NCBI GenBank assembly: GCA_017499595.2
Contig: CM039007.1
Span: forward strand, 2,852,001 to 2,916,000
Source of the DNA: Psilocybe cubensis
Lineage: Eukaryota
Direction: 5' to 3'
Length of the DNA: 64,000 bases
A program made the translations under genes and the position numbers. The notes beneath the pieces are model-generated. The model was not told the origin of the DNA. It did no database searches and saw only the letters and a program-made list of their open reading frames with translations. Shown here piece after piece: positions 12,521 to 64,000 of this stretch; position 1 is the stretch's first letter, and every line of letters starts with the position of its first letter.

Positions 12521-12702
12521 CGTGGGAATATCCTGCGTACAGTGTACGCAGAATATTCCCACGGTCAACCTCTCCCGATATTCAGCCGAGTGTGGGAATA
12601 TTCTGCGTATAGTGTACGCAGAATTCTCCCACGGACTTCCTCGCCGATATTCAGCCAAGTATGGGAATATTCTGCGTACAGTGTACGCAGGATTCTCCCA
12701 TG
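12521..12702. repeat. Three ~42-bp palindromic (hairpin) units between the convergent cargo genes
   Basis: Unit gtgggaatatcctgcgtacagtgtacgcagaatattcccac with ~25-bp related spacers. Two units at 63762-63875; related units at ~10423-10464 and ~10659-10700. Confidence 0.9.
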
Positions 12703-12846
12703 GGGTGCCAACTAACACCTTCAGATAATTTCTGTCATGAAAATGACTTGACAAATTATTCCTTGTTATTTACAATGTTCACGCAAATGGATTGATTGTT
12801 TGTTCAGCACATTTATGATATCCTTGTCTTTTTATGTACATATGTA

Positions 12847-13821
12847 TTAATCTTGGGACATAGTATTGCTATTGTGGACTGTGTCCTCATTTAAGCGCAT
12901 ACGTGCCATCCTCTGTTGCGTGTCTTCAATGTCAATCTGACCTTTGTACAGCTGCCTCTTTGTCCTACACAAAACAGCAACCTGTCTTTTCACTGGAGTA
13001 TAGCGCGACCGCATTCTGAGAATATCAGCTTTCTGTTGGAAGTTATGAATGGCTATGAGACTGTTCAATGTAACATTGCTTACCTCTCTTGCCTCCTGGT
13101 CCAAGACAAGTATTCCGCGAAGAGCGACAACAAATTTGTACTTGTTTCCTTGGGCAGGAAATGCAACAAAGGCAACACTGATCTTGACAATGTCTCCAAT
13201 TTGTATGGAGGCAGGATTATAAGAATAATATCTGTTGCAACATGATATTAGTTTGGTTGTGATGTGTTGTTGGTATTTTCTAAACATACCTGGCTGTTCC
13301 GTCAGGAAGTATCTCCCGACGAAGAAACTGTACCTTGTTATCGATTGCGTGGATGAAACTGTCCCCTACCATGGACGCCAACACGTTATCAGGGTCGACC
13401 AGGGGATGAAAACCTATGTTGTCAGATTTGTCTTGATATGCGGATACCTTCGTGAAATATTGGCTATGCGCATGGAAAACATTAAAACCCGTGTCTTTGT
13501 GAAGAACTGGGTCATAGCCGCTGACGCTGTCCGCGGGAAAATTGTTTGCAAAATGGAGGAAAACTTCTTCTAGCTTTTCCATCACCTTATTGAACACAAT
13601 GTCTCCGAGTCCCATGATAGCAATGGCGGTACGTAAATATGGTTGTTGCTTGACCGTTCTGTCGCAGCTGTAACAGTCCTCATTTGTAATTAATTCACCT
13701 CAATGGAGTGGACGTACGAAGCAGGCTTTGCCATTGGTGGTAGCATCTTGTCGCTAACTATGCCTTGGAGTCTGAATATCACTTCGTCCATTGCACCGAT
13801 ATCCACATCAAAGTTGGACAT
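12847..13821 (-). CDS. Cargo gene of unknown function (possible OB-fold ssDNA-binding-like protein), multi-exon
   Basis: Spliced MSNFDVDIGAMDEVIFRLQG...DNKVQF...YNPASIQIGDIVKISVAFVAFP...FVVALRGILVLD. Near-identical copy at 62644-63618. The fold call is only an inference. Confidence 0.7.
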
Positions 13822-14409
13822 ATTTATATTATATTATATATATATTATATTATTACAAAGCGTGACGCTGAATCGTAAAGACACGTCATGCCACGCTCCG
13901 CGGTGGCCCACTAAAACAAGTCTTGTTTCTTCTTTGGCTGGGCGCCTCTTTAAATTGCATCTGAATCTCACTCACTTTCTTGAGGGTCTGATACCTTTCT
14001 GATGTCATATAGGTGTATATACCTGGTACAATTGAGAGGGCAGTAAGGTTGCACTCAGCCCAGCTGAATATCCTCGGATGAATATCCAACCAACATGACA
14101 ACTGAAAGTATTTAAAGCTGATCGAAAGAAGTGCACAGTCTATTTTCGACCTTCTTTCAACCATGCTTATGGGTACATATGATTTCCGGTTCGTGTGGCT
14201 GTGGAACGTTGATCGGTGCGAAGCTCTTGTGTATCTCTCAGTGTAACGCTGGCACGTATCAGCTAGCGCGATGTTTGCAGGGAAGGACTTAAGGTGTTTT
14301 GCCCACAAGACAAGTCGATCCGCCCAGGCCGCGATACTACCGAATAGTCAGGTGGTTGTGGAGAGTATGCTTATCTCTGCGTTCAATATTGTAAAAGATA
14401 TTCGGGTCA

Positions 14410-15908: not shown

Positions 15909-17345
15909 TCACAGTGAAGAGCCGTGTTCCAACAATCTGTAAAAATCTGCGACGAGGTACAAACTGCCAGCGAGCACCACCAATCCCTCTCCACCGCGCT
16001 TTGCTTGTTTCTCAGCTGCCCATTCTAGCGCGCGCTTCAACCCTTCATTTTCCGATGACAACCACACATCACCCTCGCCCAGCTCTGGAACAAGCGCCTG
16101 CACAGTCTCACGCATCGTCGAGAGGGCTACAGGTTTGACCCATGGCATGCCTTCCGGCGGGGAGAACGGGAGCAGCGCAACAGATATATGTGGCACTAAA
16201 CTTGATGTCCCAGGAAACGGTGGCAAGATGGGCGAGAGCGTTTGCAGAGGTGTTTTGGGAGGCGAATGAGAGAGACTGAGGATGTATGTTATGTGGATTG
16301 GAGTTGTAGTGGTATTTTCGAGGAGAGAGGTAATGTATTCACCCAGAGTTTTGGCTGATGCGGGGTTGTGTGCGCCGTCTGCGAGCACGAGGAGGTCGAG
16401 AGGTGAAGGCCCTGGGACAGAGATAGAGTGGAACGAGAGTCGACCGCGCCATTTGACTTTTGCGATACCTGCAGATATGGACGCTGGTGTGATGCGTTCT
16501 CGGAGCCTAAGCACATCTGTATCGGGGTAGTTAAATGTGAGGAGAGCATCGATGACACCAAGCGCAGTGCCTAGGTTGTCGAGCTGGTGCGCGCCTTGAA
16601 GTGGGAACTGGGCTTCGATTGCCTCAGGGAAAGCTTGTAATTGAAATTTGACAATGCGTGGTGGCGGCCCTGTCTTTGAGGCATCGTTAAACGGCGACCA
16701 TGTACCTGAATCGACGGTTGACACGTCAACGCTTCTCAGCAACGTCCCCCCAGCCTCACGCACGACCTCTTCCACAACGCCTTGGACCTCTCCATGCTGC
16801 TGCCGTCCCAAGATAAATGGTCTCCCATTACGTGCAATTCCAGCCTTCTCCCGAGCAATGAGTGCAACTGTATCGCCCAAAAATGCCTGGTGGTCAAGAT
16901 CGACCGCGGCGAGGGCCGACGCACGAATACACGCAGTAGGCACGATGTTTGTCGCATCACGGAGCCCGCCCATGCCGACTTCCAGAACGACCACATCGAC
17001 GTGGGCAGTTTCAAAAATGCGCAGCGCTGTCATCGCAAGGAGCTCGAAGGAAGTCAGTCGGGTGCCCTGTTCGCGGTCGTGCGCCTCGACGTCCGTCCGT
17101 GTCTCTGTGTAGACCTTGATATCGATAGCAACATCATCTATGGTGATACTGTCGAGTACAGAGACGAGATGGGGGCTGTTGAATCGCCCGATACGGAGCG
17201 GGGAGGAAGATGTGAGGAGAATAGATGTGAGCAGGGCGGAGACACTGCCTTTGCCATTGGTGCCAGCGATGTGCAGCGTTGGGCGGGTGTATGGGAGGAA
17301 TGGTAAGAGAGATTTGAGGCGGTCGAGCGATAAATCGATGGACAT
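15909..17345 (-). CDS. Dihydrofolate synthase / folylpolyglutamate synthase (FolC family, FOL3-like), intronless
   Basis: HIAGTNGKGS P-loop, FNSPHL, LTSFE, LEVGMGG.RDATN, DLDHQAFLG, WRGRL, DGAHNP, AGSLYLV. First ATG gives MSIDLSLDRL. Confidence 0.93.
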   Translation of the reverse strand: MSIDLSLDRLKSLLPFLPYTRPTLHIAGTNGKGSVSALLTSILLTSSSPLRIGRFNSPHLVSVLDSITIDDVAIDIKVYTETRTDVEAHDREQGTRLTSFELLAMTALRIFETAHVDVVVLEVGMGGLRDATNIVPTACIRASALAAVDLDHQAFLGDTVALIAREKAGIARNGRPFILGRQQHGEVQGVVEEVVREAGGTLLRSVDVSTVDSGTWSPFNDASKTGPPPRIVKFQLQAFPEAIEAQFPLQGAHQLDNLGTALGVIDALLTFNYPDTDVLRLRERITPASISAGIAKVKWRGRLSFHSISVPGPSPLDLLVLADGAHNPASAKTLGEYITSLLENTTTTPIHITYILSLSHSPPKTPLQTLSPILPPFPGTSSLVPHISVALLPFSPPEGMPWVKPVALSTMRETVQALVPELGEGDVWLSSENEGLKRALEWAAEKQAKRGGEGLVVLAGSLYLVADFYRLLEHGSSL

Positions 17346-18412
17346 TGCTTGGGAATTGGAGTTGGAGTTGGACGAATTAGACGAGCTTAAATGGTTATCG
17401 ATGAGTGTGGGGATCAAAGTTTATACTATGCCATATCGGAAAGAACTTTGGCTAAATGACATCAGTTAACATCCCGTCGAGAATTGGAAGTCACTTTATG
17501 TCCCAAGTAAAGGTGGTTTAACGCTGACCACTGGAATTGTTGGTCGCACCATTGACGCACAAGTTCATGTTATCATCGGCAAAAGTGACAAGATCCCCAA
17601 ATGCCTTTTGTGCCTTTTTAAGCAGGTCAATGTTTTGCGTGACATGCTAAGTCACACAAAAACATTTTACTAAAATTTGGAGGTGCATAAAACATTTGGA
17701 GAGCATTTGAATGCTCCACAAACATTTATGCACCTCAAAGTTCAGTACAAAATATTCCATGTATTTACATTTATCTCTTAATGATTTGTTGGCCATAAAA
17801 CTTGCAGGGAACAATTGATTAAAAATAAAAACAAAGAATAAAACATTGAGTTTAACTTCTTATTGACACAGATGATTAAAGGGCTTCAAATATGTTCAAA
17901 ATGATTTAGGTAGGAGAAATTTTACTGACCACACGTAATACCTATGACGCTGGCAGGTTGTTTCCAATACGACACCATTGTCATAAGAATTACATGTACG
18001 TGAGAAATTTGACTTCAAGAAATACACATTAGAGAGGCCGTCTCCCCTGACAAATTAAATCGGAGACTGAATATCCGTTTTGAGCATAATAATCTGAGAC
18101 ACGCCCAAGTCGCTTTCTTTCTACCCTCTCATTTCCACCACTCTGACGACGGCGCTCTCTGGCTTCACTCAACACTGCAATGCCTCTTTCTTGGTACTTT
18201 GAGACTGGTATAGAGCTGAAAAGGTAAAAGACATGCTCTTTTTTCATCACACAAACCTAACTGACTGTTTTATACCTATTTATGGCTTGTTCTGTTGATA
18301 ACCAACGATCTACCCCGATGACGTCACACCACCTTTATCATTTTTCCCCTCATTCCTAAACAACCACCTTTATACTCGTCTACGTAGAATAACTCTTTGT
18401 ACAATGGGGAGG

Positions 18413-18449
18413 TATATAGTACCGACCCACTTCGATGCAGAACCTCAGT
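18413..18449 (+). promoter_or_regulatory. Putative LTR promoter: TATATA box plus initiator-like TCAGT
   Basis: TATATA at 18413-18418 and TCAGT at 18445-18449, ~30 bp apart; the initiator coincides with the start of the LTR internal repeat. Confidence 0.55.
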
Positions 18450-18808
18450 CTCTATCATATAGAACTGAGGTATGCATGTCTTCACTTTCACATCTTATTC
18501 ACTACCTAATGTACCGTACAGTTTATTTCCCCTCTCTAGGTACATTGTCATGTAATTGAGTCTCTATCATATAGAACTGAGTTTATTTCCCCTCTCTAGG
18601 GTCTTGATTTCCTACAGGTTATGGGCCTTTCTTGTCACAATTAAAGTGGCACGAATCTTGACCCTATTACGATCTAATCTTATCAGCGCGCCCTTATCAG
18701 CGCGCCTTTTGATCCCTTTCATTGGAATACTCCCCGCATATTACTGGCTGCGGACTCCCATTCCTCTTCATAAGGCTACTCTAACTATCCTATACACTTC
18801 CTACTACC

Positions 18809-21800
18809 ATGGGTGACGGCACAACTCCCACTATTGACCCCAACGATGCTACCAGGCCTTCTGTGTCTGAAAAACACATCACGGCCACATACAAAGGCGA
18901 CCCACTTGACAAGAACGTTGGGAACTGGAAAACGTGGAGTCGCACCATAAAGGACGACTTAACCATCCACGGCTTTGGTGCCCATATCAATCGCAAGCTT
19001 TGCAAGTCCCCCGATCCCTCTGTGTACCCCATCGCCCATCGTAACTGGGTATACAATGACCAAGTTGCCAAGAGTTATATTTGCCGCTACTGCGTCGACT
19101 TCGAACGCGAGAAAATCGATCACTTGGAGACCGCACTCGAGTGCTGGGAGACCCTGGAGAAGTACCATCTAGACGAGGGCCCCATCAAACAAGTGTCTTT
19201 GATTCAGAAGGCGCTCACCTCACGGATTCCACGAGATAGCACGATGGTGGAGAAGGCGCGCGAGATCCGTGAGCAGATCAAACGCGCGTTCCAGATTCCT
19301 GGGGGTGTTACCGAAGATGTACTCACCGTCATCGCGATTCTCCACGCTCTCGACGACGGCCATGACCACACGCGTCTCCTTATACAAACTCAGATGCAGT
19401 CCGCCACAAAGGAACGTCCTTACCGATACGAGGATATTGTCCTGGTTCTTGAACGCGAGGTCCAATTGATACTCGGCGCAGAACAGCGAAACACCCTAGC
19501 GGATAGCCCCCTCGCACTCGCTGCCCAGACGAAGGGAAAAGGGAAATCCGCCATTACTTGCTCGAACTGTGCGCGTTCGGGGCATACAATTGAATGGTGT
19601 ATCAAGGGACCGAATGGCGGGATGAAAGGAAAGACCATAGCTGAGGTTCGCGCTGCACGTGCCGAGAAAAATGGTCAGACCTCGTCTCGTACAAACGCTT
19701 CTTCAAAACCGCCTACATATTCGTTTAAGGATGCATCTGGCAAGGCTCTCTTTACCATCCAGGTCGATCCCTCTCCACCCGATGCAACACCCAATACAAC
19801 TGAATTTGCAGGGCTCGCATCCATCACTCCTGAACAATTTGTCCAACTCGAGCAACGTGCGACAGATCGCCTGGCTGAGGAGGAGTCTATTGAGTATGAA
19901 GGGTGGATGGCAAAGGTCGAGGAGCTTACCGAAATAGACACACCAACGACAAGCCTCGATTGGAATGCTCACTCACGCGTCTTCGATACGGCAAAAATCG
20001 CCACTTCCCCACTTAATACACCAGATTCTACTCCAATAAAGAACATAGAGGAACTCCCCTTTTACCTCGATTCGGGTGCCAGTACCCACATATCCCCAGA
20101 GGCTACTGACTTCAAAACTCTACGTCCCATTTCTTTGAGATCCGTCAAAGGTGTTGGCGGCTCATCCATCAATGCCCACGGCGTAGGCGATATCTCGTTA
20201 CGGCTCCCAAATGACATATCCATTCAGCTGAAGGATGTACTTTACATTCCGCAGTCAGCCGCTCGTCTCATATCCGTGAGCAAGCTGGCCCGCCATTCTA
20301 AAACCCGCTCTGCCTTTGACGATGAAGGATGTATAATCCAATCAAAGTTAACAGGCGCCACCATTGCTACCGGAACACTTCTTAACTCCAATTTATATTC
20401 CCTCGATCTCTACAAACCCGAAGCCGACCATATATTCGTTGCATCACATGAACCAGATTTGGAAACATGGCATCGCCGTCTCGGCCATCCCAATTACCAA
20501 ACTCTCGTTGACATGGCACGAAAGGGTCTGGTAGAAGGTATGTCCCTACCCGATGCACTTCCTAAGAAATGCAACTCATGCATACTTGGCAAACAGACGA
20601 AAACACCTGTTCCAAAGAAGCGTGAGGAAGGGGAAGGACATAGAGCTACGGAAATATTGGATAAAGTTCTGGCAGACTTAAGTGGTAAACACGATGTAAA
20701 ATCTAAGAGTGGCAATGAATATGTAATGGACATTATGGATGACTGTGCGAGTTTTACATGGGGTATCCCTCTACCCGATAAGGGGGCTGCAGACGATAAC
20801 CTAATCGCATGGGAGATTGCCCGAGAACGTGAATTTGGGAAACGCGTTGGGACCTACTACATCGACAATGGCGAGCTGAAAACTAAGAAGTTCTTAGCGT
20901 GGACACGATCGCGTGGAACTCGAGTTGTATTCACTGCCCCATATACTTCTGCCCACAACGGACGTGTGGAACGGCTCCATCGTACAATCATGAACAAAGC
21001 CCGCACAATGCGCATCTACGCGGGCTGTCCACCGTCACTCTGGGACGAATTCTATCTCACAGGGATCCACCTACAAAATAGGACAATCACCCGATCTATT
21101 GATTCTGTTACGCCATACCAAATATTATACAAACGGGCGCCAGACTACTCTTACATGCGGGAAATTGGATGTCGGGCCTTTGTCCTTATCCAACCAGTAA
21201 AGTCCAATCCAAAAATTTATGCTCGCTCAATTGAATGTGTACTGATTGGATACGAGCCTAACGCTAAAGCATATCGGTGCTATCATTCTACAACTAAAAG
21301 AGTTGTTCGCTTCCTCGAAAGTCACGAGGGCCACTCGCGATCCATCACTGATAACCCATCTCCAACCTCACCCACAACCCTTCCTGAAATCCTTGCTTCG
21401 TCGACACCGGAATCCAATAACCTCAACGAAGACATAGAGGAATTTCTAACAGGCGCTCCACCAGAGGAAGATGTGCTGACTCCACCAAAACAACAACACA
21501 ACATTCAACCTGTCCCTGATGCACCAGCGCCTATCTATCGCAACCCTGACATCAAACCAGCGGATCAGAGGCGTACGTCATCCCGGATCGCTCATGCGAA
21601 TGGCGATGACGCCAAGAAACGATCAAGATTGGAAAGAGCATTAGAAGAGGTTCGAGAGTCTGCGGAAAGGCGGAGGGAATACCTGGATGAGTTGAAGAGG
21701 AGGAGAGAGGAGAAGAAGAGGACGCTGGTGGATGTTGTTGAGGAGGAGAAGCGAAATGATCCCCAGGTGGTTAAGAAAGAGGCGGTGGCGGAGATTAAGG

Positions 21801-23500
21801 AAACGTTGGCCCAGGCGTCGAACGATATTGCCGCAGTCGGTATTACAGACCATCTTGTCGAACGGGTTCTATCCGCAATCGCGGAAACAAGCAGCATTGA
21901 CCCGCGAACTCTTGGTGATGAAGACGAGCCCAAGAACTATGCCGAGGCAAAACAGTCACCAGACGCCGACAAGTGGGAAGCCGCTTTTCGCGATGAAGTC
22001 AGATCGCTGAAGGACATGAAAGTTTTCCGCCTGATTCCACGCTCTCAAGTCCCGATAGGATCCAGAATCCGAAAGGGACGTCCAATATTCACTCGAAAGC
22101 GAAACGAACATGGGGTTACAGTCCGCTTCAAAGTGCGCATCGTCTTCAAGGGCTATGAACAAATTTACGGACAAGACTACACTAAAACAACGTCACCAAC
22201 TGCTAGAACCTCTACCTGGCGACTCCTTTTCCATATCGCCGCTGTCAAGGGATGGGATGCACAACAAATTGACATAAAAACCGCTTTCCTTCACGGAATA
22301 CTGCCTGAAGACGAGGTGCAATACATGGAGCAACCGGAGGGATGTGTGGAAGAGGGAAAAGAGGATTATGTGTGGGTAATTGAGCGAGGGCTGTATGGTA
22401 TGAAGCAGGCAGGGCGGATATGGAACAAGACGCTAAACGAGGCGATGAAATCTTGGGGATTCGTACAACTAAAAAGTGAGTCGTGTATATATTTTCGACA
22501 CGATCAACACGGTACTGTCATCACCGGTGTACATGTCGACGACTTCCTCTCGATTGCGGATCCTCCCAGTGCCAATGATCACTTCAAAGCACAAATGAGG
22601 ACGAAATGGACTATCTCAGATTTGGGCGAACCAAAACACTGCATTGGAATTGCAGTATCTCGAAATCGTACCGAACATACCATTTCTCTCTCTCAAACCG
22701 CCCTCATCGACCGTATCATCCAGCAATTCGGACAAAGTGATTCATATCCCCTCAGCATACCATTTGATCCCGGTCTAAAACTTAGACGTCCTGACCCCAA
22801 AGACATTAATGCAGAGGAGAAGACACAGATTTCAAAACTGCCTTATCGTTCACTAGTCGGCTGCCTACTCTACCTCGCAGTAGGAACGCGCCCCGACATT
22901 TCATATGCGGTCCAACAGCTATCCCAATACCTAGACTCGTACTCTTATGCCCACTGGAACGCCGCTATTCGAGTTGTACGCTACCTCAAAGGCACCAGAG
23001 ACCTCAAACTCACACTGGGTGGCAAATACGATATCAAACTAATGGGTTTTACTGACTCTGACTGGGCTAACTGCTTGGACACGAGGAGGAGTGTTGGCGG
23101 CTACGCGTTTTCACTCGGATCAGGTCTCATTTCGTGGAGTTCGAAGAAACAGAAGACATTGGCTACGTCATCCACAGAGGCTGAATATACAGCAGCGTTT
23201 GAGGCTTCGAAGGAAGCAGTCTGGCTTCGAACACTACTCACAGAAATTTCATTATCACCAAAAGACGAAACTACCATCATGTGCGACAACAACGGAGCCA
23301 TCAGCCTATCCGAGGACCCCTCAAATCATTCAAAGGCAAAACACATCGACATACACTACCACTATCTCCGCGAAAAGGTCGAAGAAAAAGCAGTCACCCT
23401 GGCTTATGTGCACACATCAAACAACATAGCCGACTTATTCACAAAAGGCCTCGACAGGACAAAATTCACCCGTTTCAGAACTCTCATAGGCGTAGTATAA
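18809..23500 (+). CDS. Copia gag-pol polyprotein (Gag zinc knuckle, PR, IN, RT, RNase H)
   Basis: Single 1563-aa ORF: CSNCARSGHTIEWC, YLDSGAS, WHRRLGH...C..C, NGRVER, DIKTAFLHG, LYGMKQAG, HVDD, FTDSDWA, NIADLFTK; copia order with IN before RT. Confidence 0.97.
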   Translation: MGDGTTPTIDPNDATRPSVSEKHITATYKGDPLDKNVGNWKTWSRTIKDDLTIHGFGAHINRKLCKSPDPSVYPIAHRNWVYNDQVAKSYICRYCVDFEREKIDHLETALECWETLEKYHLDEGPIKQVSLIQKALTSRIPRDSTMVEKAREIREQIKRAFQIPGGVTEDVLTVIAILHALDDGHDHTRLLIQTQMQSATKERPYRYEDIVLVLEREVQLILGAEQRNTLADSPLALAAQTKGKGKSAITCSNCARSGHTIEWCIKGPNGGMKGKTIAEVRAARAEKNGQTSSRTNASSKPPTYSFKDASGKALFTIQVDPSPPDATPNTTEFAGLASITPEQFVQLEQRATDRLAEEESIEYEGWMAKVEELTEIDTPTTSLDWNAHSRVFDTAKIATSPLNTPDSTPIKNIEELPFYLDSGASTHISPEATDFKTLRPISLRSVKGVGGSSINAHGVGDISLRLPNDISIQLKDVLYIPQSAARLISVSKLARHSKTRSAFDDEGCIIQSKLTGATIATGTLLNSNLYSLDLYKPEADHIFVASHEPDLETWHRRLGHPNYQTLVDMARKGLVEGMSLPDALPKKCNSCILGKQTKTPVPKKREEGEGHRATEILDKVLADLSGKHDVKSKSGNEYVMDIMDDCASFTWGIPLPDKGAADDNLIAWEIAREREFGKRVGTYYIDNGELKTKKFLAWTRSRGTRVVFTAPYTSAHNGRVERLHRTIMNKARTMRIYAGCPPSLWDEFYLTGIHLQNRTITRSIDSVTPYQILYKRAPDYSYMREIGCRAFVLIQPVKSNPKIYARSIECVLIGYEPNAKAYRCYHSTTKRVVRFLESHEGHSRSITDNPSPTSPTTLPEILASSTPESNNLNEDIEEFLTGAPPEEDVLTPPKQQHNIQPVPDAPAPIYRNPDIKPADQRRTSSRIAHANGDDAKKRSRLERALEEVRESAERRREYLDELKRRREEKKRTLVDVVEEEKRNDPQVVKKEAVAEIKETLAQASNDIAAVGITDHLVERVLSAIAETSSIDPRTLGDEDEPKNYAEAKQSPDADKWEAAFRDEVRSLKDMKVFRLIPRSQVPIGSRIRKGRPIFTRKRNEHGVTVRFKVRIVFKGYEQIYGQDYTKTTSPTARTSTWRLLFHIAAVKGWDAQQIDIKTAFLHGILPEDEVQYMEQPEGCVEEGKEDYVWVIERGLYGMKQAGRIWNKTLNEAMKSWGFVQLKSESCIYFRHDQHGTVITGVHVDDFLSIADPPSANDHFKAQMRTKWTISDLGEPKHCIGIAVSRNRTEHTISLSQTALIDRIIQQFGQSDSYPLSIPFDPGLKLRRPDPKDINAEEKTQISKLPYRSLVGCLLYLAVGTRPDISYAVQQLSQYLDSYSYAHWNAAIRVVRYLKGTRDLKLTLGGKYDIKLMGFTDSDWANCLDTRRSVGGYAFSLGSGLISWSSKKQKTLATSSTEAEYTAAFEASKEAVWLRTLLTEISLSPKDETTIMCDNNGAISLSEDPSNHSKAKHIDIHYHYLREKVEEKAVTLAYVHTSNNIADLFTKGLDRTKFTRFRTLIGVV

Positions 23501-25680
23501 ATTTTTCACTCCTATATTTTCTCCATTATACACTTATATCTATTTCCTTCATAACATCGCGCTACCTCGTTGAGGAGGAGTGTTGATAACCAACGATCTA
23601 CCCCGATGACGTCACACCACCTTTATCATTTTTCCCCTCATTCCTAAACAACCACCTTTATACTCGTCTACGTAGAATAACTCTTTGTACAATGGGGAGG
23701 TATATAGTACCGACCCACTTCGATGCAGAACCTCAGTCTCTATCATATAGAACTGAGGTATGCATGTCTTCACTTTCACATCTTATTCACTACCTAATGT
23801 ACCGTACAGTTTATTTCCCCTCTCTAGGTACATTGTCATGTAATCGAGTCTCTATCATATAGAACTGAGTTTATTTCCCCTCTCTAGGGTCTTGATTTCC
23901 TACATGTTCTTCCTCTGCCTTGATTACTTCCTTCTCAAGAGTGTAGCTAATAACCAGACACCCATTCTGGTCAACTTATTGGTACGTATATGCGCATATA
24001 TTTCACATATACTTGACCGTGACTCATCACCAGTGTAGAACTTGTTGCGCATCAATTCGATCACGTGACTCCGTATTTTCCCAGCGCCCAGATTGTAACT
24101 AGAATCTGCTTTCTCTCAGTCATTTCTATGTAGCCTCTTTTGTTTTGAATAGATTTCAATAATATTTTTCATTTAATTGCTATATCCTATTGTGTGAATA
24201 CCTGAAGTGGCTGCCATGAGTAGAAATATTCAAAATATATCATTGTGTCAACATTGGGTGAACTAAAAATGTTTTTGGGGCTCTCAAAGGCAACTTAAAT
24301 GTTATCCAAATGTTTTTGGGTCTCCCAAATTTTACCGAAATGATTTGATTAAATTTAAATCTAGCTAAAACATTGGGTTTTGTAAATGATTTATAGCCTT
24401 TCAAAATTCCGAGTCTCTCGTTAGTCAATCTAAAAGGCCATTTGGGCCTTGGGGCATTTGGACGCCTCCAAATGCCTTGGCAAGGCATTTGGGGACTTGG
24501 TCACTTTTGCCGATGTCACTTTCAAGTGATATTGGATGGCGTCGTAATTGAATTGTAGAGGGTTTATGGTACGCCGAGCCACCACAGTGTCCTGAAGGAA
24601 AAGCGGAAATTTTCATACTGTCTCTTGGAAAAGATATTTCTGTTAAAGAATGTGATCAGAGACCTCTGTTCTGAGTATGCGCGTCTAAAACAGAACAGAA
24701 AACAACGAAGGCCATTAATAGCCGGCAGTTGCCGCGTATTGTCACATACAACATGTCACATACATAATAGCACAGCGTGTGTCACGGTTGACGCGTTTGA
24801 TACGCGCCCGTGGAAAGCTCGCGTTGAGCACTGAGCCCTGAGCTAAAAACATGCTGAAACGAATGTACCCAACGTCCTTCCTATTTTATTCAATGCATGT
24901 CTGGCGGGCCCAGATCCAATTCAAATTTGATTATTGGTGAGGCAAAACAGCGAGGTCATTCTGACAGACATATGTAGAATACGTTTCAGCGCAGCTCGGG
25001 CATCAGAAGGTCCATGAAACAGACTGGTAAATGGATTTCACAGATGGAAGGTGACCATGTCACTATTTGGCAAACCTTTTGACCCTTGGAAAGCCGGAAG
25101 AGCGACTCGCCAATTCCCAGACAACAAGCAAATATTGTCCGACAGGTATGCCGAATGATGGCCAGGAAACTCAACATGGGTGATGCGTTTCAACCCAAGG
25201 CTGAAGTACAGCTGCCGACAATACCAGGGCGGTGGACAGATCAAATAACGCCGTCCTGCCGAGACTTGGAACTGATAGATTGTGTGTGGCAAGTCGGTAG
25301 AATGTTACTTTTCAAGCCCGAAAGGTACTTTCCAGCTTTCAAGTTTTGTACTGATTTTCTAAACATACGCCAATAAATTAAAATTAAAACAATGACGGTC
25401 CGCAAGTTCAGTACCCTTCCCACGTCAAGGCCAGGATACAACGTTATGTGGTTAAGTTTAACTTGGCTCATCATTGGTTTCTGAATTTGAAAGCATGATG
25501 GCCTGTTGCGATGTCGGTGTTGCAACCCACTTCTGTAAGGTCTGGCCAGGCCCTTTCAATCTCTTGAGGACCAGAAGTTAAACTTAAAGCGCGCAGAATT
25601 GATTAATGGTATTTATCCTTCAGAAACTTGCTTTTAGTGCATCATCGAATACTAATGTTAAGTCGAAACACGGTAGTACC

Positions 25681-33800: not shown

Positions 33801-35550
33801 GCTGTTTTTTCACCTTGACACAGGCAGAGTAAGCACTGACACAGTTTCAAATACTAACCGATTGTGAATGCTATAATGTAAGCTAAATACAGCATTATTG
33901 AGTGTTTTTTCTGAGCCAAGCGCTGTGATAACAGCCAGTAGCAGATATGTTAAGTTTGGTTAAGGTTAAATACACCTGAAGTTGAGGTTATAGGTGGTCA
34001 ATCTACTCAGGGTCAGCTATACGCACAGGTTTTGTGTTTCATCATCAAACTCGAAATTTTTAATGCATATCTGAACTTAAAGTATTCCCCTAGCTGCTTC
34101 AGGAGTAGCTATCCACCCCAAAGCGGGGTACAAATATAATTCCCACACGGATTCGGCAGTGCCGGCACGCAGGGTAGTCATCTCGACAACTCTATGTCTT
34201 TGGAAAAAATGTTAGATATATGGGGAGGGGATTACAAAGTATGGTACGGGATGTCATATATAGGGGTGAGATGTATATATGTATGTACCATTCATTAAAG
34301 TTGAAGATTCTGTAAATACAATTATCGGGATGATTTCCTCTATGCTCGGAAACTAGCTCTCTATGAGTGGGACATTAATATATATAGTGGGGATTGTATA
34401 AAACTGTTCTCTATATGTATGGGACAAAAAGTTTAATGATTGGTATTAAATGTGCAAACGGACAGCCATACATCCCAGGTTATTTAACACCATTGGTAAT
34501 TGTGCATGTCGGCGAGGAATCAAATCGAGTGCCTTCTGGTGATTGTCTATTGTGCGATTAATGTCAACAACTTTTCCTGATCGAGCCCCACGACGTGAGT
34601 ACGATTTGCCCAGATTACCGAACCAGGTGAAAAGATCGGCATGACCAGCAGGAGTGAGCGCTATTGATTTCTCATGGTTCAAGATGGAAACGTCCAAATC
34701 ATCGAGGTCGGCGGTGTGCTCATATCTACAAAAATACGAGTACCCGATGTTGTTGTAAAATCCTGGCAAATCCTCACTACTTCCCGAGGTGCTTATAATT
34801 GACCTTCGGTGGCATGATATAGCCTGATTGACATCCGTAAGGTCCCCTGAACGCAAAAATCGATACAAATATGCTGTCCCAAGGTTAGTGAGCCATGTAG
34901 CAAGCGGAGGGGGGGTGCAATTGACTGCTTGTAGATGATTCAATATGGACCTATCAAGATCCTCGAGTACAGCAGTTCGTTTATAACGAAGGCCGTACGA
35001 ATTTCCAAGGTTACTGAGTAGATGAGGAAACTCTGGTTGTTTCTCAGGAGTAATGGAGATAGCCTCAGTAAGACTAGCAATCGATCTGTGAATGTCGTCT
35101 AATTCTCCCAAACGCTCGAAGCGTGAATTTAGTGCACTAGCGAGATTACTCAGTCGGGTGGCTTTCCGTGGATTTCCATGTGGGGTGTGCTCCAGTGCCT
35201 GCTCAAAGTCGAAAATGGCCTCTTCAATATCCTTTAGAGATGAGGTATGATAGAACCGTTTTAATGCGAACACTCCGTGGTTTGTGAAATCTTCCGCCTT
35301 CATATGGAATCAACCAACATGCTCAGTGCTGATGCAAAAATATTTACCTGCATGGTACCAAACCCCGTTGACATATAGTTTCCCATACTCGAATAAACTG
35401 CTGGCAGGAAGTTGGCGTTGTGAGAATTCACGGTAAGGCCGTCTATGACTATTGATGAATGTGTTGAGGAGGTCAAAGGGTTGATTTTCTCTTTCGTTGC
35501 AGAGAAGCATACATAAGTCTTGAGCTCTATAAACAGATGCACCCTAGAAC
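30877..35550 (-). pseudogene. TPR-CHAT caspase-like protease pseudogene (5' end not resolved)
   Basis: TPR array, EWLEQGR.LVW, WWCPTG.L.FLPLHAAG, LSACQT. Lesions: TE insertion at 33375-34470, in-frame TAA at 33074-33076, catalytic HFACHG changed to HFACYG (31297-31299). Confidence 0.9.
33375..34470. mobile_element. Non-autonomous TIR element, IS3EU-like ends
   Basis: ~52-bp TIR TATGGCTGTCCGTTTGCAC...; 6-bp TSD CATCCC on both sides; interrupts the TPR reading frame. Confidence 0.9.
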
Positions 35551-40640: not shown

Positions 40641-43600
40641 CTAGTAACCAAAATGTACATAAGGGACCCATTGGGAAAATGAGCTATCACAGTCCACCAG
40701 ACATTGTTGAACTTGTTTTGTCGCATAGTCTAACGCAAATGCTGCATCCCCACAGTCCAGGTTCCCGTTGGATTGCTTGTTGTTAACTATGTATTCGTAG
40801 AATTTGATAGCAAACCTCGGTCCATAAGCGTCAGAAATATTCCACATCGTACTCACAACTCCACGATATCCTGCTGACAGCATACCTGCAGCAGTATGGA
40901 CGGCCTCTTCTGAAAGCCTATCGTCCCCTTTTGAGGTCTGACAGGCCGAGAGGAATGCCAAATCTTTGTTTGGGATATTCTGCTGCATAATGTCAAGAAG
41001 TCCCAGGCGACCATCATAAAGGCACAGGCCGCTAGAAAGCGCATCTCCATGATCTTGAACACCATGACATGCAAAGTGAACCCAATTGTGAGAAACCATC
41101 TCTTTCATGACATTCTCCTTTGTTGCGCTCGTGTCCTCCAGCAATCGTGTTTCTATCCCAGTTCCAAGGAATAGGGTTTGAATATCATGCGTCTCTTTAC
41201 GAACCGAAGGTATAGGGTTCAGTCCTGGTGTGTCAGGCTGGCTGATTAGAAGGATATCAGTAGATGTGGATTGTACAGGTTTTGACGCCATCTTCTCCAG
41301 GAGGAAGCGCACGGATGGCGTGTATGACGACACCACATAGTCACGAACATTAGAGCCAGTACAATACTCTGATCCGTATATTCCTGCTGCATGGAGAGGG
41401 AGAAAAGCAAGAGGACCAACGGGGCACCACCATATGCGTCGCCGGTTTAGTGGTTCATTGGAGGCCTGTAATTTAACATGAGAATCCTTGATGTCGTTTA
41501 TGAGCTCGATTCAACAGCTACGTACCGTATAACCTAATGCCTTGATAATTGGCCAAACAATCTTCTGCCAGAGTTCCTTTAATATATACCTCATAGGCTC
41601 TGGACGTTCATGACGACGGCGAGTTCCACGTTCCTGATTGTCGACATCACGTTTGTCCAGAACATCAACTTGAAGAATTTTCTGCAGCGCCTCGGCCTGT
41701 TTGATGTCAAATTCTGTAAGGGGTACGTGCAATGGAGCACTGCTATCCTTTACAAGCGCTAAGGCATCACAGCTAGTCCTGGAAATATTAAATATTATGA
41801 CAGGCCCTTCAGCAGGTAGAGACGCTAGGATATGGGCGGCCTTTGCGGGCAAAAGAAAGCGTTCGAAGTTTTTCTGACTTCGAATTTCCGACAAAAGGCT
41901 TTTGTATTGAGCTGCAAATAGCGTATGATCCAGTGCTTGACTTTGAAGGCTGATATCGTCTGCAAGATTTATACCAGACTCCACTGTAGCCGGAACCTTT
42001 CGAGTTCCATGATGCTCCAACGCTTTAGCTAAGTTCAAGAACCTATCAGCTAGGTTCGGATGTTTCTCTTTAAGATCGTCAATCGGTGTTCGGAGCTGAT
42101 TTATCTGACTCCAAACCAAACATCTTCCCTGTTCCAGCCATTCCAGAGCAAGATCAAGTCTACCAAAATCTAATGCTGCGCCAGCTGCTGCCCTTATGAG
42201 ATTAGAATGACCTTGGAGGTTGTAATGACGGCGAGAGATTGTCTGCGATAAAGCCGCTACCTCTGACAGTAAATCTATAGCGAGTGAAAAGTCACTTAGA
42301 CATCCCTCGCGATCATAGTCGAATGAGATAAACGCAGCCTTTGTTGCAGCATCAAGGCGAGCAGATGGAGTCCCTGGTGCATTGGCGCCTTTGCGATATG
42401 CCTGAATTGCAGCCTGTATATCAGGTTGCGAATCGCAAAGCTCAAACCGACATGCATACGAGATACCCAAGCTGTACAACATCGTGGTGAGAATGGAATA
42501 CGTGGCAGGCGTGAGATCAATAGCTTGTTGGAAATATGATATAGAGAGGTCAATGTTGTCAATGAAACAAGTTTTCTTGAAACGAAGGCCGTGAGCATTT
42601 CCAAGATTACCGAGCCACGCTCCTCGAGCCGTATGATCCTTAGGTGCGCAGTCCAAGGCTTTTCTTATGAATGCGATGCTGTTGTCGATATCGCAGAGGT
42701 CCTGCGTATGGTCGAACTTCAACTCATATGACGTTCCCAGATTGTTTAACCAGTTTGGAAGAACCGCGTGGCCAGCTGGAGCCAGGTCAATTACTTTGTG
42801 GTGAAGGATCAATGCAGTGTCAATGTCCTCCACGTTATGGGAATGCCTGAAGCGAGTATCATAGGCGTTGGCCAACAAGTTAAGATATCTTAGATACTCT
42901 GCATGATCGGGGGGAGTGAAATCAACCGCTTTATGATGATAGGAAATGGAATGGTTAATGTCTTGATCGATTTTGGAGTGTTCAAAGCGCACTCTATACG
43001 AATATCCTAGGCCACAAAGCAGAATCGACAAGTCAGGGTGATCCGAAGGCATTGAGTCCACCCCCTTTTGGTGGTACGATATTGCATAATCAATATCTTG
43101 AAGATCTCCGGTCACCATGAATCGAGACAGGTGAGCATCTCCCAGGTTGTGGATTCGCCGGGTAAGCTCAGAATGTCCGGGGGGAGTGCTTTGCACCGCC
43201 TTCTGATTGTACATGAGGGCGCGGTTATTGTCTTCAAGGTCACCAGTCCGCTCAAAACGCGACAAGTAAGATCGGCCAAGGTTGCTTAGGTAGACGGCAA
43301 GGTTTTGAGCGTTGGATGGTGTAAGCTTTACAGCCTTTTCATGATAGGAAATCGCCGAATTGATATTTTCAAAGTCACCAGTGCGATTAAAACGAAGAAG
43401 ATAGGACGTTCCCAGATTTGCGCAGAGGCTTGCGTTGTTAGTCGAGCTATCACATTCCAAGGCCATTTTGTGATACGAAATTGCCGAATCTATGTCCAGA
43501 AGGTCTCCCGTGCGTTCGAAGCGACGTCCATAAGAATGTCCTAGACCATTATAAAATCCTGAAAGATCTTCATGCCCAGGATGTGTGGAGTCTGCTGCCT

Positions 43601-45428
43601 TCTTATTACACGCTATAGCCAAATCTAAATCGAGAAGATTTCCCGACCGTTCGAACCGGCGTGTATATGAAAACCCAAGCCCATGATTCCAACTCGGAAG
43701 ATCTGGATGTCCAGATGGTGCGAAATCGATTGTTTTCTGGTGGTATGATATAGCAGCCTCAATGTCTTCCAGACTTCCAGTGAGCTCAAACCTACTGACG
43801 TATGCATTTCCCAGCTTATGGAGTCGACTGGGATAAGAAGGATCATCTGCAGAAGTCAAATCTAGAACCTGCTTCCAATAGTCGATGGAGACATCGGCGT
43901 CTTGAAGTTGCTCACTATTCTTGAAACGGGAATGATACGAAGATGCCAATTTTTCCAGAGACATGAGACGCGTCGGACCTTCATGAGGAGAGCAGTCCAA
44001 CGCTTGGTGACCAAAAGAAATAGCAAGATTGATATCGTGTACATCATGGAATTGTTCTGAGCGCGTCCTGTATGCGATTGCAAGATTTATGAACGACCTC
44101 CAAAGGATGTCTTTGTTTGAATTAGCATTATCAACAGCTTTGCGATGATATGATACAACCAGGTCAATATCGTTTATGTCTTGAGTACAGTTGAAACGAT
44201 CCGCATAAAGGTTTCCGAGTTTGGTGAGGATATTGGGGAGATTGCTCGGGGGGCAGGATTCCTCCATCTTCCGGAAGTGAGATATGACAAAATCGAGATC
44301 ATCGAGGTTATGGCTAAGATTGAAACGAATTTCGTAAGAAATCACAAGGTTATTAAGCCACCTTGGATGGTCGTCGGAAGTGGAATTAAGCGCCTTCGTG
44401 TGGTACTCTACTGCGTGGTCAATGTCGCCTAGATCTTTTGTTTGCTTGAACCTGCATCGATGCAAAATCCCCAGGTTGCTGAAAATATTAGGTAGATTCG
44501 GATCGCCTTCATGAGCTAGCCTTACAGCATCTTCGAGTGTCGAGATAGCCTTAGTAATGTCTGCAAGGTCTCCAGTAAGATCAAAGAGCGATTGTAAGGC
44601 ACACGCTAGGCCGTTCAAGCGGTCGGCCATCTCCTCGTGCTCGTCTGGGGTGCGCTTCACCGATTCTTCGAAGTTTAAAATAGATTGTTTGAGGTCCTGT
44701 ATATCGCCAAATCGTTCAAATTTGCGCAGAAAGAATATTCCGCATTGTTCAAGATACTCCGGCTGTGTTTGATCAGTTATAACAATAAGTAATTGAGGTT
44801 CGTGACTGACATTCATAAAACTCTGCAAATTAATTGTAGTAGTATAGCTGTCTTGGTGATTTCCCACCTGCACCTCCTCGTAGTTTGTCCAGGGGGTGGG
44901 ATCCTGTTTTACAAAAGGTGGGATTTCCTCGTCGTTTTGTAATCGTGGCCAGTCCCGTGAACTCTTATCAACCTTCTTCAGGGTGATCACAAGACATTTC
45001 CTCGGAAGATCCTGCCTCACAACCATAGCCTTTAATTGTCAGTTAGAAGATCCACGCTGTGAATAGAAATCGATTCACCTCCGAGTCAACTTTTGAATAT
45101 AGAACTAGGTCAAATGCATATTTGGCTTCGTTCAGACTTCTGGATGAATAGGACAATTCTGATGAGTATCTAAAACCACTTCCATGGAAAAGAATAACGT
45201 ACTCTCTGGGATAAGCCCGAAATGAAAGAGTTTTATCCAAGACGGCAGTTGTGCACTTCAAACATGATGTTGCAATGTCGGGAATGTTGACGGACAGACG
45301 AATCAAATTCTGTAAAAAAAATGTTGAGTAAGATGTATCATTGGAATATGATGGTAACATACCTCTTGGTCAGTGGTTTCTGAACTTTTCTGGGCCCAAA
45401 AAACTGATGGAATTATGTGTGACGTCAT
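40641..45428 (-). CDS. p23/Sba1(CS)-TPR-CHAT caspase-like protease, apparently intact
   Basis: Exons 45428-45363, 45309-45203, 45139-45079, 45029-~41526 and ~41465-40641. N-terminus MTSHIIPSVFWAQKSS...NLIRLSVNIPDI...YAFDLVLY...LKK...DWPRL; long TPR array; CHAT dyad HFACHG and LSACQT intact. Confidence 0.88.
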
Positions 45429-62102: not shown

Positions 62103-62544
62103 ATTGATACTGGGGAACCCATGTCGATATCGTGGCTTCTACCCGCTTCAGAATGCGTCTTCGTTTGGGCGTGGTGAAAAGGATGATCCCAAAGCATTGT
62201 CAAATGAGCATGTTCGATTATTTATACAAAAGGATACTCTGAAGCGGCTATCTAATGATTCCAACACAATTCATTCATTTTCCCAACATCTATGCTTGAT
62301 TTAGTACACCGGACCGTTACTTGAAAATGTAGAGAATATATGTCGACCCATAAATTCCGAGACTGTATGCTTTAATCCTCCCCCAAGTTAACTTTCTCAC
62401 GGCCCACAACTTTCAATTAACAAGTACAAATTTTGCCACCACACGATGAGCTAAACAATGCACTAACATAACCCTGAACGCACTGACACACCCTGACCAA
62501 TTTATAGATCATTGGAAACATGCACTGATATTGCACTGACATTA

Positions 62545-64000
62545 CTTGTTTTAGTGGGCCACCGCGGAGCGTGGCATGACGAGTCTTTACGATTCAGCGT
62601 CATGCTTTGTAATAATATAATATATATATAATATAATATAAATATGTCCAACTTTGACGTGGATATCGGTGCAATGGACGAAGTGATATTCAGACTCCAA
62701 GGCATAGTTAGCGACAAGATGCTACCACCAATGGCAAAGCCTGCTTCGTACGTCCACTCCATTGAGGTGAATTAATTACAAATGAGGACTGTTACAGCCG
62801 CAACAGAACGGTCAAGCAACAACCATATTTACGTACCGCCATTGCTATCACGGGACTTGGAGACATTGTGTTCAATAAGGTGATGGAAAAGCTAGAAGAA
62901 GTTTTCCTCCGTTTTGCAAACAATTTTCCCACGGACAGCGTCAGCGGCTATGACCCAGTTCTTCACAAAGACACGGGTTTCAATGTTTTCCATGCGCATA
63001 GCCAATATTTCACGAAGGTATCCGCATAACAAGACAAATCTGACAACATAGGTTTTCATCCCCTGGTCGACCCTGATAACGTGTTGGCATCCATGGTAGG
63101 GGACAGTTTCATCCACGCAATCGATAACAAGGTACAGTTTCTTCGTCGGGAGATACTTCCTGACGGAACAGCCAGGTATGTTTAGAAAATACCAACAACA
63201 CATCACAACCAAACTAATATCATGTTGCAACAGATATTATTCTTATAATCCTGCCTCCATACGAATTGGAGACATTGTCGAGATCAGTGTTGCCTTTGTT
63301 GCATTTCCTGCCCAAGGAAACAAGTACAAATTTGTTGTCGCTCTTCGCGGAATACTTGTCTTGGACCAGGAGGGAAGAGAGGTAAGCAATGTGACATTGA
63401 ACAGTCTCATAGCCATTCATAACTTCCAACAGAAAGCTGATATTCTCAGAATGCGGTCGCGCTATACTCCAGCGAAAAGACAGGTTGCTGTTTTGTGTAG
63501 GACAAAGAGGCAGCTGTACAAAGGTCAGATTGACATTGAAGACACGCAACAGAGGATGGCACGTATGCGCTTAAATGAGGACACAGTCCACAATAGCAAT
63601 ACTATATCCCAAGATTAATACATATGTACATAGAAAGACAAGGATATCATAAATGTGCTGAACAAACAATCAATCCATTTGCGTGAACATTGTAAATAAC
63701 AAGGAATAATTTGTCAAGTCATTTTCATGACAGAAATTATCTGAAGGTGTTAGTTGGCACCCCATGGGAGAATTCTGCGTACACTGTACACAGAATATTC
63801 CCACACTCGGCTGAATATCGGGAGAGGTTGACCGTGGGAATATTCTGCGTACACTGTACGCAGGATATTCCCACGCTCATCCGCAAGTCAAACTTACAAA
63901 TTAAGACAAAAAGAATGAGGACGAGAACACAAGTTTATTTCGAACAAAAATTTGACTAAGGATGGAAGAAATTACAAATATCCATTCCACAAGAGGCTTT
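62545..64000 (-). mobile_element. Second copy of the Helitron-like element (3' portion; runs off the window)
   Basis: Near-identical reverse complement of ~12400-13920; similarity stops exactly at ...ctaaaaCAAG|T. Confidence 0.9.
62644..63618 (+). CDS. Second copy of the cargo gene at 12847-13821
   Basis: Same exons with only a few substitutions. Confidence 0.7.

Follow-up and report, generated by a model that had tools for sequence, protein, structure and literature searches.

A conserved layout in the long terminal repeats of Ty1/copia elements joins an intron-bearing leader to a fused copy that its predicted spliced form would match

The usual view is that retroelements lose introns when they pass through RNA and that any which keep them package unspliced RNA. 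The locus studied here raises the question of how a retrotransposon might keep introns inside its long terminal repeats (LTRs) if the RNA that it copies is spliced. The DNA analyzed, 64 kb of Psilocybe cubensis contig CM039007.1 (hereafter the window, with positions counted from its first letter), contains an intact Ty1/copia element of 5612 bp at 18293-23904. Both of its LTRs carry a leader split by a short intron-like segment and, a little downstream, a second copy of the same leader in which the two parts are fused. An earlier note on this DNA, made from the letters alone, proposed that the spliced 5' end of the RNA allows the element to rebuild its intron-bearing LTR in each cycle. The architecture was confirmed to be conserved, beyond a one-off, within a known kind of element. 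The comparative sequence evidence inclines us slightly toward the view that the LTR is built so that spliced genomic RNA can regenerate a complete LTR.

The features of the leader in the 5' LTR, followed by their counterparts in the 3' LTR, are listed here (R, U3, and U5 are the repeat, unique 3', and unique 5' regions).

18413-18418, + strand: TATATA box, 34 nt before the A of TCAGT (18447)
18442-18471, + strand: palindrome ACCTCAGT...ACTGAGGT, enclosing the expected start (18447) and the GT of donor 1 (18470)
18447-18469, + strand: A1, leader exon 1, beginning at the A of the initiator-like TCAGT; hairpin-forming
18470-18521, + strand: intron 1, 52 nt, with donor GTATGC, branch-like CTAAT (18506-18510), and acceptor CAG
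18522-18539, + strand: B1, an 18-nt pyrimidine-rich micro-exon with a terminal AG
18540-18599, + strand: putative intron 2, 60 nt, GT..AG, made up of the spacer S, A2, and B2
18540-18558, + strand: spacer S, 19 nt, with donor GTACAT; AT-rich and resembling a poly(A) signal
18559-18581, + strand: A2, the second copy of A
18582-18599, + strand: B2, the second copy of B, with a terminal AG
18559-18599, + strand: fused A2+B2, identical to A1+B1 at 41/41 positions; the proposed R, which the spliced 5' end would match
18600-18616, + strand: the remaining U5, 17 nt, ending in CA
3' LTR counterparts, + strand: A1 23735-23757, intron 1 23758-23809, B1 23810-23827, S 23828-23846, A2B2 23847-23887

This layout was checked by direct reading of the sequence, by BLAST, and with a custom split-repeat scan. 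Direct reading found every coordinate that the earlier note had given for the two LTRs to be correct to the base. The TATATA box, placed there about 30 bp before TCAGT, measured 34 nt from its A, and the segment 18540-18599 does read as 60 nt from GT to AG. Its claim that splicing out both segments would produce the second copy agrees with the identity of A1+B1 and A2+B2 at all 41 positions. In intron 1 of the window element, CTAAT lies 12 nt before the CAG. The A/B junction can slide by 2 nt, with AG on both sides, and the GT-AG register is one of three. The split-repeat scan, which looked for a sequence X, 35-200 nt, and a sequence Y with XY fused nearby, covered the whole 64-kb window on both strands. 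Long arms (21+19 nt, plus the 2-nt slide) were found in these two LTRs alone, and the other match was a trivial 9+9 within another repeat.

Relatives were sought by a Pol search of metagenome contigs, which gave 306 related stretches; 80 of these were retained as loci, and carriers of the layout were identified by custom scans and direct reading. The earlier note had suggested screening other basidiomycete LTRs for direct repeats differing by a GT-AG segment, and these contigs hold 12 further elements of that kind, bringing the total to 13 independent elements and 16 LTRs with the window included. The carriers are in L001, L008 (two elements, one per strand), L012, L013, L014, L015, L043, L059, L064, L065, and L069, and the architecture is present in both LTRs of L008 and of L014. 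Nine loci have the LTR next to the matched pol, and in these Pol is 32-38% identical to the window protein. For L012, L043, and L064, the LTR and the pol gene that recruited the locus may come from different elements, and the L064 carrier is a second element within its locus. In L013 (1839) and L015 (2679), an LTR downstream of pol runs straight into a primer-binding site (PBS) and leader, which could reflect either tandem elements sharing an LTR or an assembler that joined a 3' LTR to a 5' internal region.

A much closer relative was found when public DNA runs were aligned to 17993-19192. Runs X1 and X6 contain a second LTR version, with a contig piece over 18450-18617 that has 18 substitutions and 0 gaps, and they also hold a matching diverged U3 and internal region at single-copy depth. 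This version is a sister element, about 8-10% diverged, that has kept the whole layout. The earlier note had allowed that the arrangement might be missing from sister copies and from unrelated families, and the gapless sister copy and the 12 other copia elements dispose of that possibility. The seven intron 1 changes listed for the sister copy miss the donor hexamer, the CTAAT, and the AG. Among the DNA reads and contigs there were no joints skipping the 52-nt or the 60-nt segment and, therefore, intron-less LTR variants were undetected in them. Among the listed runs none contained the element as RNA, and X13, tentatively an RNA run, gave no match; neither outcome speaks for or against expression.

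The signals that surround the leader recur with the layout. A TATA-like box stands at -31 to -35 in 9/13 elements (strict TATAWA in five, looser forms in four). The box is followed by the pentamer (A/C/T)CCTC and then by A1, which is 22-36 nt long across the 13 elements, starts with AGT, and ends with ACTGAG. Intron 1 is 46-59 nt long and has a donor with G at +5 in 13/13. In 8/13 a YTRAY motif lies 10-17 nt from the acceptor, and the others have CTTAC-like motifs instead. The acceptor is AG in 11/13; only the decayed copies L065 and L064 depart from this. From its ends, its donor, its branch motif, and a length in the fungal range of ~45-60 nt, intron 1 would appear to be a U2-type spliceosomal intron. 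B is 9-22 nt long and pyrimidine-rich, and both its terminal AG and the GT after B1 are present in 13/13. S is 10-20 nt long and AT-rich, starting with GT in 13/13 and with GTA in 11/13. The sum of S, A2, and B2, which is the putative intron 2, is 47-64 nt in 13/13, though its three parts vary about two-fold, and its AG acceptor follows the pyrimidine-rich B2 in every case. The PBS comes after B2 either directly or 8-70 nt downstream.

A regenerating cycle predicts that the fused copy should start at the initiator A, that it should end in AG with a GT following in the first copy, and that A and B should co-vary between the copies, and comparative support for it comes from all of these. Copy 2 begins at the AGT of CTCAGT in 13/13 elements. 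The left limit of homology falls exactly there in 8/13 and extends 1-3 nt further in 5/13, which is about the chance expectation. On its left the fused copy begins with the initiator A, one TATA-spacing downstream, and in this it resembles a copy of an RNA 5' end. On the other side, the homology ends -2 to +1 nt from AG/GT in 9/13 elements when the GT is not presupposed; in the remaining 4/13 the mismatch-tolerant walk overran or stopped early. The internal junction between A and B is the exact exon-exon junction of a consensus intron. With both segments spliced out, RNA from 18447 would be co-linear with DNA from 18559, and the same correspondence holds in every element.

The elements in which B2 reaches the end of the LTR provide a further boundary. 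In this short-U5 class (L001, L008, L013, L014, L059, and L069), the G of the terminal AG is base 1 of the PBS; L065 was assigned to the class solely on its junction of 3' LTR and flank. In L008, L001, and L065 the base that follows the 3' LTR is T or A, not G, and in the fragment of the L001 5' LTR at the start of its locus B2 is followed directly by GGTTATGAGCC. Since the PBS supplies the G that completes the AG, and this G is missing at the 3' junction, the second acceptor of the short-U5 elements exists at the 5' end only. An "extra A" ending B2 in L001 was considered as evidence against the regenerating cycle and was withdrawn, because the base is flank after the 3' LTR and the 5' LTR shows B2 followed by the PBS. 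The "extra A" ending B2 in L065 was given the same flank reading by analogy with L001, no 5' LTR having been seen there.

The two copies have also evolved together. A1 and A2 are identical in 8/13 elements; B1 and B2 are identical in 6/13 by the tabulated sequences, or in 7/13 after the terminal G of L001 is set aside. That G is the sole B mismatch of L001 and lies at the 3' LTR/flank junction, and setting it aside is confirmed by the L001 5' LTR; L065 is similar, with no 5' LTR seen. Of the other mismatches, 18/20 are transitions, and LTR pairs are 87-95% identical where measured. L008, L013, and L015 are sister elements in one well-supported clade, and their B segments cannot be aligned with one another, yet B1 and B2 are identical within each element. 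A passive duplicate would drift and, since the copies agree within an element, one copy appears to be rewritten from the other. The sole process we can name that would rewrite A+B within these boundaries is one in which a leader that no longer contains either segment is reverse transcribed, with transfer to the contiguous copy at the 3' end. If A2B2 were overwritten by A1+B1 in each cycle, the copies would match within elements and differ between them.

In such a cycle, transcription would start at the A of TCAGT (18447), 34 nt past the TATA box, and intron 1 (18470-18521) and intron 2 (18540-18599, the spacer with A2B2) would be spliced out at the 5' end. The resulting leader would have the order cap-A-B-U5-PBS; the letter-for-letter match of this predicted leader to the sequence from A2 onward is seen in the DNA. 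The 58-nt minus-strand strong-stop DNA would anneal to the unspliced, contiguous A2B2 near the 3' end of the RNA. Its extension would recopy the spacer, B1, intron 1, A1, and U3, and both new LTRs would bear the introns again. Two asymmetries, a less certain part of the proposal, may keep the 3' copy unspliced, namely a hairpin over donor 1 and, in the seven short-U5 relatives, the acceptor at the 5' LTR-PBS junction. One long intron from donor 1 to the AG ending A2 was also considered; it would give the same product but leaves B1, the AG/GT boundary, and the co-variation of B unexplained and, therefore, was rejected as the sole route.

The hairpin is formed by two 8-nt arms, ACCTCAGT (18442-18449) and ACTGAGGT (18464-18471), which are reverse complements of each other, and the motif is present in all examples. 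The A segment of the window folds at -2.6 kcal/mol alone and at -14.0 kcal/mol when the 5 upstream nt and the donor GU are added. Across elements, A alone gives -1.2 to -4.1 kcal/mol, and the extended stem lies between -10.5 and -17.7 kcal/mol in 11/11. When U3 is included, accessibility of the donor region falls in 10/11. Compared with shuffled sequence, the variable inner part of A adds more to the stem (Fisher combined p = 2.5e-5, from 17 elements, some of which are related and thus not fully independent). An RNA that starts at +1 has no 5' arm and, therefore, donor 1 would be unpaired at the 5' end and base-paired in the copy within the 3' LTR. Masking of donor 1 only where U3 is transcribed is a less certain part of the proposal. 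Alternatively, each arm could be conserved on its own account, one as initiator and the other as donor/branch sequence.

The spacer, which begins like GTAYAT and ends A-rich, contains a TAYATA-like motif in 8/13 elements and an A-rich motif in 12/13 when a loose pattern is used. Yeast-type poly(A) signals combine an efficiency element with a positioning element, and the spacer looks like a fungal version of such a signal. If it is one, cleavage would fall within A2B2, and the 5' end would lose the signal once intron 2 was removed. In the window, the spacer and the leader beyond the PBS have a likeness (TTGTCA..AATT) that we attribute to chance. The fullest form of the proposal is one that we put forward tentatively and regard as doubtful. 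A widespread fungal copia lineage would make its R-U5 by splicing, with two mini-introns, lying between cap and PBS, that contain promoter-proximal sequence along with the poly(A) signal of the element itself. These would be removed at the 5' end only, by means of the hairpin and the PBS-completed acceptor, and the pre-spliced 3' copy would receive the strong-stop DNA.

Several observations weigh against regeneration through spliced RNA. The donor of intron 2 is weak, with GTA in 11/13 elements and G at +5 in 1/13, and the best candidate for its branch site, the CTGAG that ends A2, does not fit the CTRAY consensus. The earlier note had already called these signals weaker than those of intron 1, and G is indeed lacking at +5 of the donor in 12/13 elements. 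Such a donor would suit either a regulated intron or an intron 2 that is skipped by reverse transcriptase (RT), as discussed below. In the window element the second acceptor lies inside the LTR, and the sequence presents no bar to its use at the 3' end. L014 carries one B1/B2 difference in both of its LTRs. In L064, A1 ends in GAA in both LTRs and A2, readable in the 5' LTR only, ends in GAG. The sister copy has four listed changes in B1 (18523, 18530, 18532, and 18533) against one in B2 (18583, the same B position as 18523), and its B1 and B2 seemingly differ at 3/18 positions; 4 of its 18 differences are unlisted, which makes the contrast probable rather than certain. Its B2 is, therefore, probably no fresh copy of the adjacent B1, and the model needs a parent with diverged LTRs or a mixed RNA pair. 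Taken together, the exceptions in L014, L064, and the sister copy need a diverged-LTR parent, two co-packaged RNAs, or use of the ordinary unspliced cycle as well.

The same side of the balance holds the relatives without a fused copy. Both LTRs of L009 have the hairpin, the intron, and a B that runs into the PBS with no S-A2-B2, and L068, L074, L073, and L045 probably likewise have an intron without the fused copy, their LTR ends being undefined. Since relatives of the L009 type keep their intron, the duplication is not needed merely to retain an LTR intron. On the RT tree the layout does not form one clade; it requires 9 changes, and 113/500 shuffles were as low, with the state unknown for most rows and three labels uncertain. 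Nineteen other LTR pairs were scanned for a strict GT-AG split repeat, with 0 matches. Nine of the 19 were read by eye, which revealed L064 as a decayed example missed by the scan and L009 as having the intron only; the other 17 pairs had neither intron nor fused copy by the strict scan, and seven of them were among those read by eye. Of the regenerating-LTR model in the earlier note, then, the predicted boundaries, the A/B co-variation, and the recurrence stood up, while the weak intron 2 donor, the B1/B2 mismatch of the sister copy, and the lone intron of L009 count against it.

Some related loci differ in other ways. L073 is a close sister of the carrier L065 (L065 4183 compared with L073 11078); its sequence after B differs from that of L065, with no second copy within 300 nt, and it may have lost the fused copy by B1-B2 recombination. 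L016 (1495-1657), a sister of L013, has a minimal LTR of 163 bp with no hairpin, no intron, and ~15-20 nt from the expected start to the PBS. In L021, L024, L046, and L050 (PBS at 558, 7498, 2275, and 221, respectively), donors of the forms GTGAGT, GTAAGG, and GTAAGT lie 20-60 nt upstream of the PBS. These consensus donors in R-U5, in the L021/L024 type as well as in L046 and L050, have no acceptor before the PBS, a pattern suggestive of leader introns extending across it. An element of the L021/L024 family (LTR start TGTTGAAG) is inserted in intron 1 of another hairpin-donor LTR in L036 (~396-460).

The evidence has to be weighed against other readings of the same layout. Intron 1 could be real and intron 2 remain unspliced, with RT skipping A2B2 to reach the upstream A-B by direct-repeat deletion during minus-strand synthesis. 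The same 58-nt strong-stop DNA and the same regeneration would follow, and the spacer would be merely a poly(A) signal. Direct-repeat deletion by retroviral RT is established, and the yeast-type motifs of the spacer and the donor 2 without G at +5, both counted above, suit this explanation. So does the finding that the copies differ more in B (7/13, or 5/13 without the two terminal-G cases) than in A (5/13), a leaning toward B that the sister copy has too. We nevertheless think RT skipping fairly unlikely, as it leaves unexplained the constant AG end of B, the constant GT after B1, homology that in five short-U5 elements takes in precisely the initial G of the PBS, and the intron-like 47-64 nt of S+A2+B2 despite its varying parts. 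The element might instead follow an ordinary cycle from unspliced RNA, with R running from 18447 to a poly(A) site near 18599, splicing serving to make mRNA only, and the fused copy being a passive fossil of recombination with spliced cDNA. Intron-bearing relatives without the fused copy, such as L009, must replicate in this way, B1 differs from B2 in some copies, and the DNA reads gave no joints of intron-less LTR variants. A passive fossil would drift, though, and the copies are identical or nearly so within 13 elements whose A and B have diverged beyond alignment; we regard this reading as quite unlikely.

Transcription could also start at the second copy (18559), which would then be an ordinary short R with the upstream intron-bearing copy as part of U3. 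The RNA would be indistinguishable from doubly spliced RNA, and an R-U5 of 58 nt is within the range of copia-type elements. This is very improbable in our judgment, because neither a TATA box nor a CCTC initiator context precedes A2 in any of the 13 elements, and the conserved TATA (-31 to -35) and CTCAGT precede A1 instead. Moreover, the left end of A2 is the initiator +1 A of A1, a coincidence to be expected only of an A2 derived from the 5' end of an RNA. Regeneration of the LTR from spliced RNA is thus the reading that we carry forward, at the strength given at the outset.

The element that hosts the leader layout has the following further features.

18288-18292, + strand: target-site duplication TGTTC, 5 bp, flanking the element, with its second copy at 23905-23909
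18293-18616, + strand: 5' LTR, 324 bp, TG..CA, identical to the 3' LTR at 323/324 positions
18617-18627, + strand: PBS GGTTATGGGCC, directly 3' of the 5' LTR
18809-23500, + strand: gag-pol, a single open reading frame (ORF) of 1563 aa, in the order gag, protease-like barrel, integrase, RT
23572-23580, + strand: polypurine tract GAGGAGGAG, immediately 5' of the 3' LTR
23581-23904, + strand: 3' LTR, 324 bp, TG..CA, with a layout matching the 5' LTR

It is a Ty1/copia LTR retrotransposon by its domain order, TG..CA LTRs, target-site duplication, PBS, and polypurine tract. Pfam matches on its Pol (P0001) are Retrotran_gag_2 (76-198), Pol_BBD (418-495), gag_pre-integrs (528-596), rve (632-713), and RVT_2 (1082-1319), with the integrase upstream of the RT in a single frame. 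The sole difference between the LTRs, T at 18557 and C at 23845, is in the spacer. The PBS motif GGTTATGGGCC abuts an LTR at 22 further places in the loci; it was matched 26 times with the window included, and three of these matches do not adjoin an LTR. We take the motif to resemble the anticodon stem-loop region of initiator tRNA-Met, which would make pairing with that tRNA a candidate. Priming of copia and Ty5 by an internal part of a tRNA (half-tRNA priming) has been described (PMC5371799). A search of the window and of 22 loci turned up no tRNA genes.

The closest Pol relatives, P0002-P0012, are 47-56% identical, and most are on contigs of ~4.9-5.4 kb, which might be transcripts. A Pol search of viral contigs gave no match, Rfam had no match across 18200-18900, and the 64-kb window contains no second LTR pair. 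The copia element is nested in another repeat (18027-18290 and 23905 onward). Empty-site reads and contigs from the DNA runs join the left flank to the right flank at 18293 and, since such reads cross this point, other copies of the surrounding repeat exist without the insertion. Depth over 18033-18290 is several-fold above that further left in three DNA runs. The leader contains a tandem 14-nt duplication (TTATCAGCGCGCC-type) at 18678-18705, and one unit is absent in 53/174 reads of run X11, which means that copies vary in this repeat. Nearby, the host ORF at 15909-17345 (- strand) is 100% identical to a protein named Dihydrofolate synthetase [Psilocybe cubensis], and its next-best named matches are from other Agaricales, which places the host among the Agaricales basidiomycetes. 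A 1.3-kb inverted repeat (97.5% identical; 12588-13921 and 62544-63878) has its copies ~50 kb apart, and shorter inverted pairs are at 37255-37669/38042-38457 and 35563-35900/36559-36876; these pairs are probably other transposons. Long ORFs with tetratricopeptide repeats (TPR_10, TPR_12, TPR_8), of a kind common in fungal NLR-like genes, are at 41511-45026 (- strand) and 34446-35303 (- strand).

The element shares the domain order, TG..CA LTRs, 5-bp target-site duplication, polypurine tract, and a GGTTATG-type PBS directly after the LTR with Ty1/copia elements (Pseudoviridae) such as Drosophila copia and yeast Ty5. It would differ from them in having an R that is assembled by splicing, and we know of no copia or Ty element with an LTR intron and a spliced duplicate. 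A full-text literature search found no description of an LTR with intron-bearing and spliced copies of a leader. Some retroviruses, including HTLV-1/BLV and the foamy viruses, have their major splice donor in R, and the 5' poly(A) site of HIV-1 is suppressed by a nearby donor. The likeness lies in a 5' splice site within the repeated region, in signals that are present in both LTRs and needed at one end, and in R hairpins that affect processing. In retroviruses, however, the acceptor is far downstream and the spliced RNAs are not replication templates, whereas in the window element the PBS comes after the whole of both introns, and spliced RNA would keep everything needed for reverse transcription.

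DIRS1-type elements have an internal complementary region, a tyrosine recombinase, and split inverted or direct repeats, and no splicing is involved. They are alike in that an extra internal copy of terminal sequence rebuilds the ends, and unlike in that the window element is a classical integrase-type LTR element. Engineered split-intron or double-copy retroviral vectors use the copying of the 3' LTR U3 into both LTRs to give a provirus with an intron that is absent from the 5' end of the packaged RNA. These vectors are man-made, and the window element would be a natural, conserved counterpart. In maize, spliced RNAs contained in LTRs have been called the first evidence for LTR introns, which average 1303 bp and occur in non-coding LTR-contained RNAs (bioRxiv 10.64898/2026.05.08.723830). 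The available part of that preprint describes neither a spliced duplicate nor a role in regenerating the LTR.

If the proposed cycle is true, it would be a new solution in the life cycle of LTR retroelements, in which the repeat structure lets a fully spliced RNA rebuild its introns and the functional R is the product of an exon-exon junction. In the fullest form of the proposal, one device would then solve intron retention, the discrimination of 5' and 3' poly(A) signals, and intron-dependent expression. The element would also be a case for how signals present in both LTRs, such as a splice donor and a poly(A) signal, come to be used at one end only. The conserved signature, which consists of TATA, 34 nt, CTCAGT, a hairpin ending ACTGAG/GT, a ~50-nt intron, a micro-exon, a GTA-spacer, the fused copy, and the PBS, can be used to locate start sites and R boundaries in the LTRs of fungal copia elements. 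The finding bears on why the transposons of basidiomycetes have introns.

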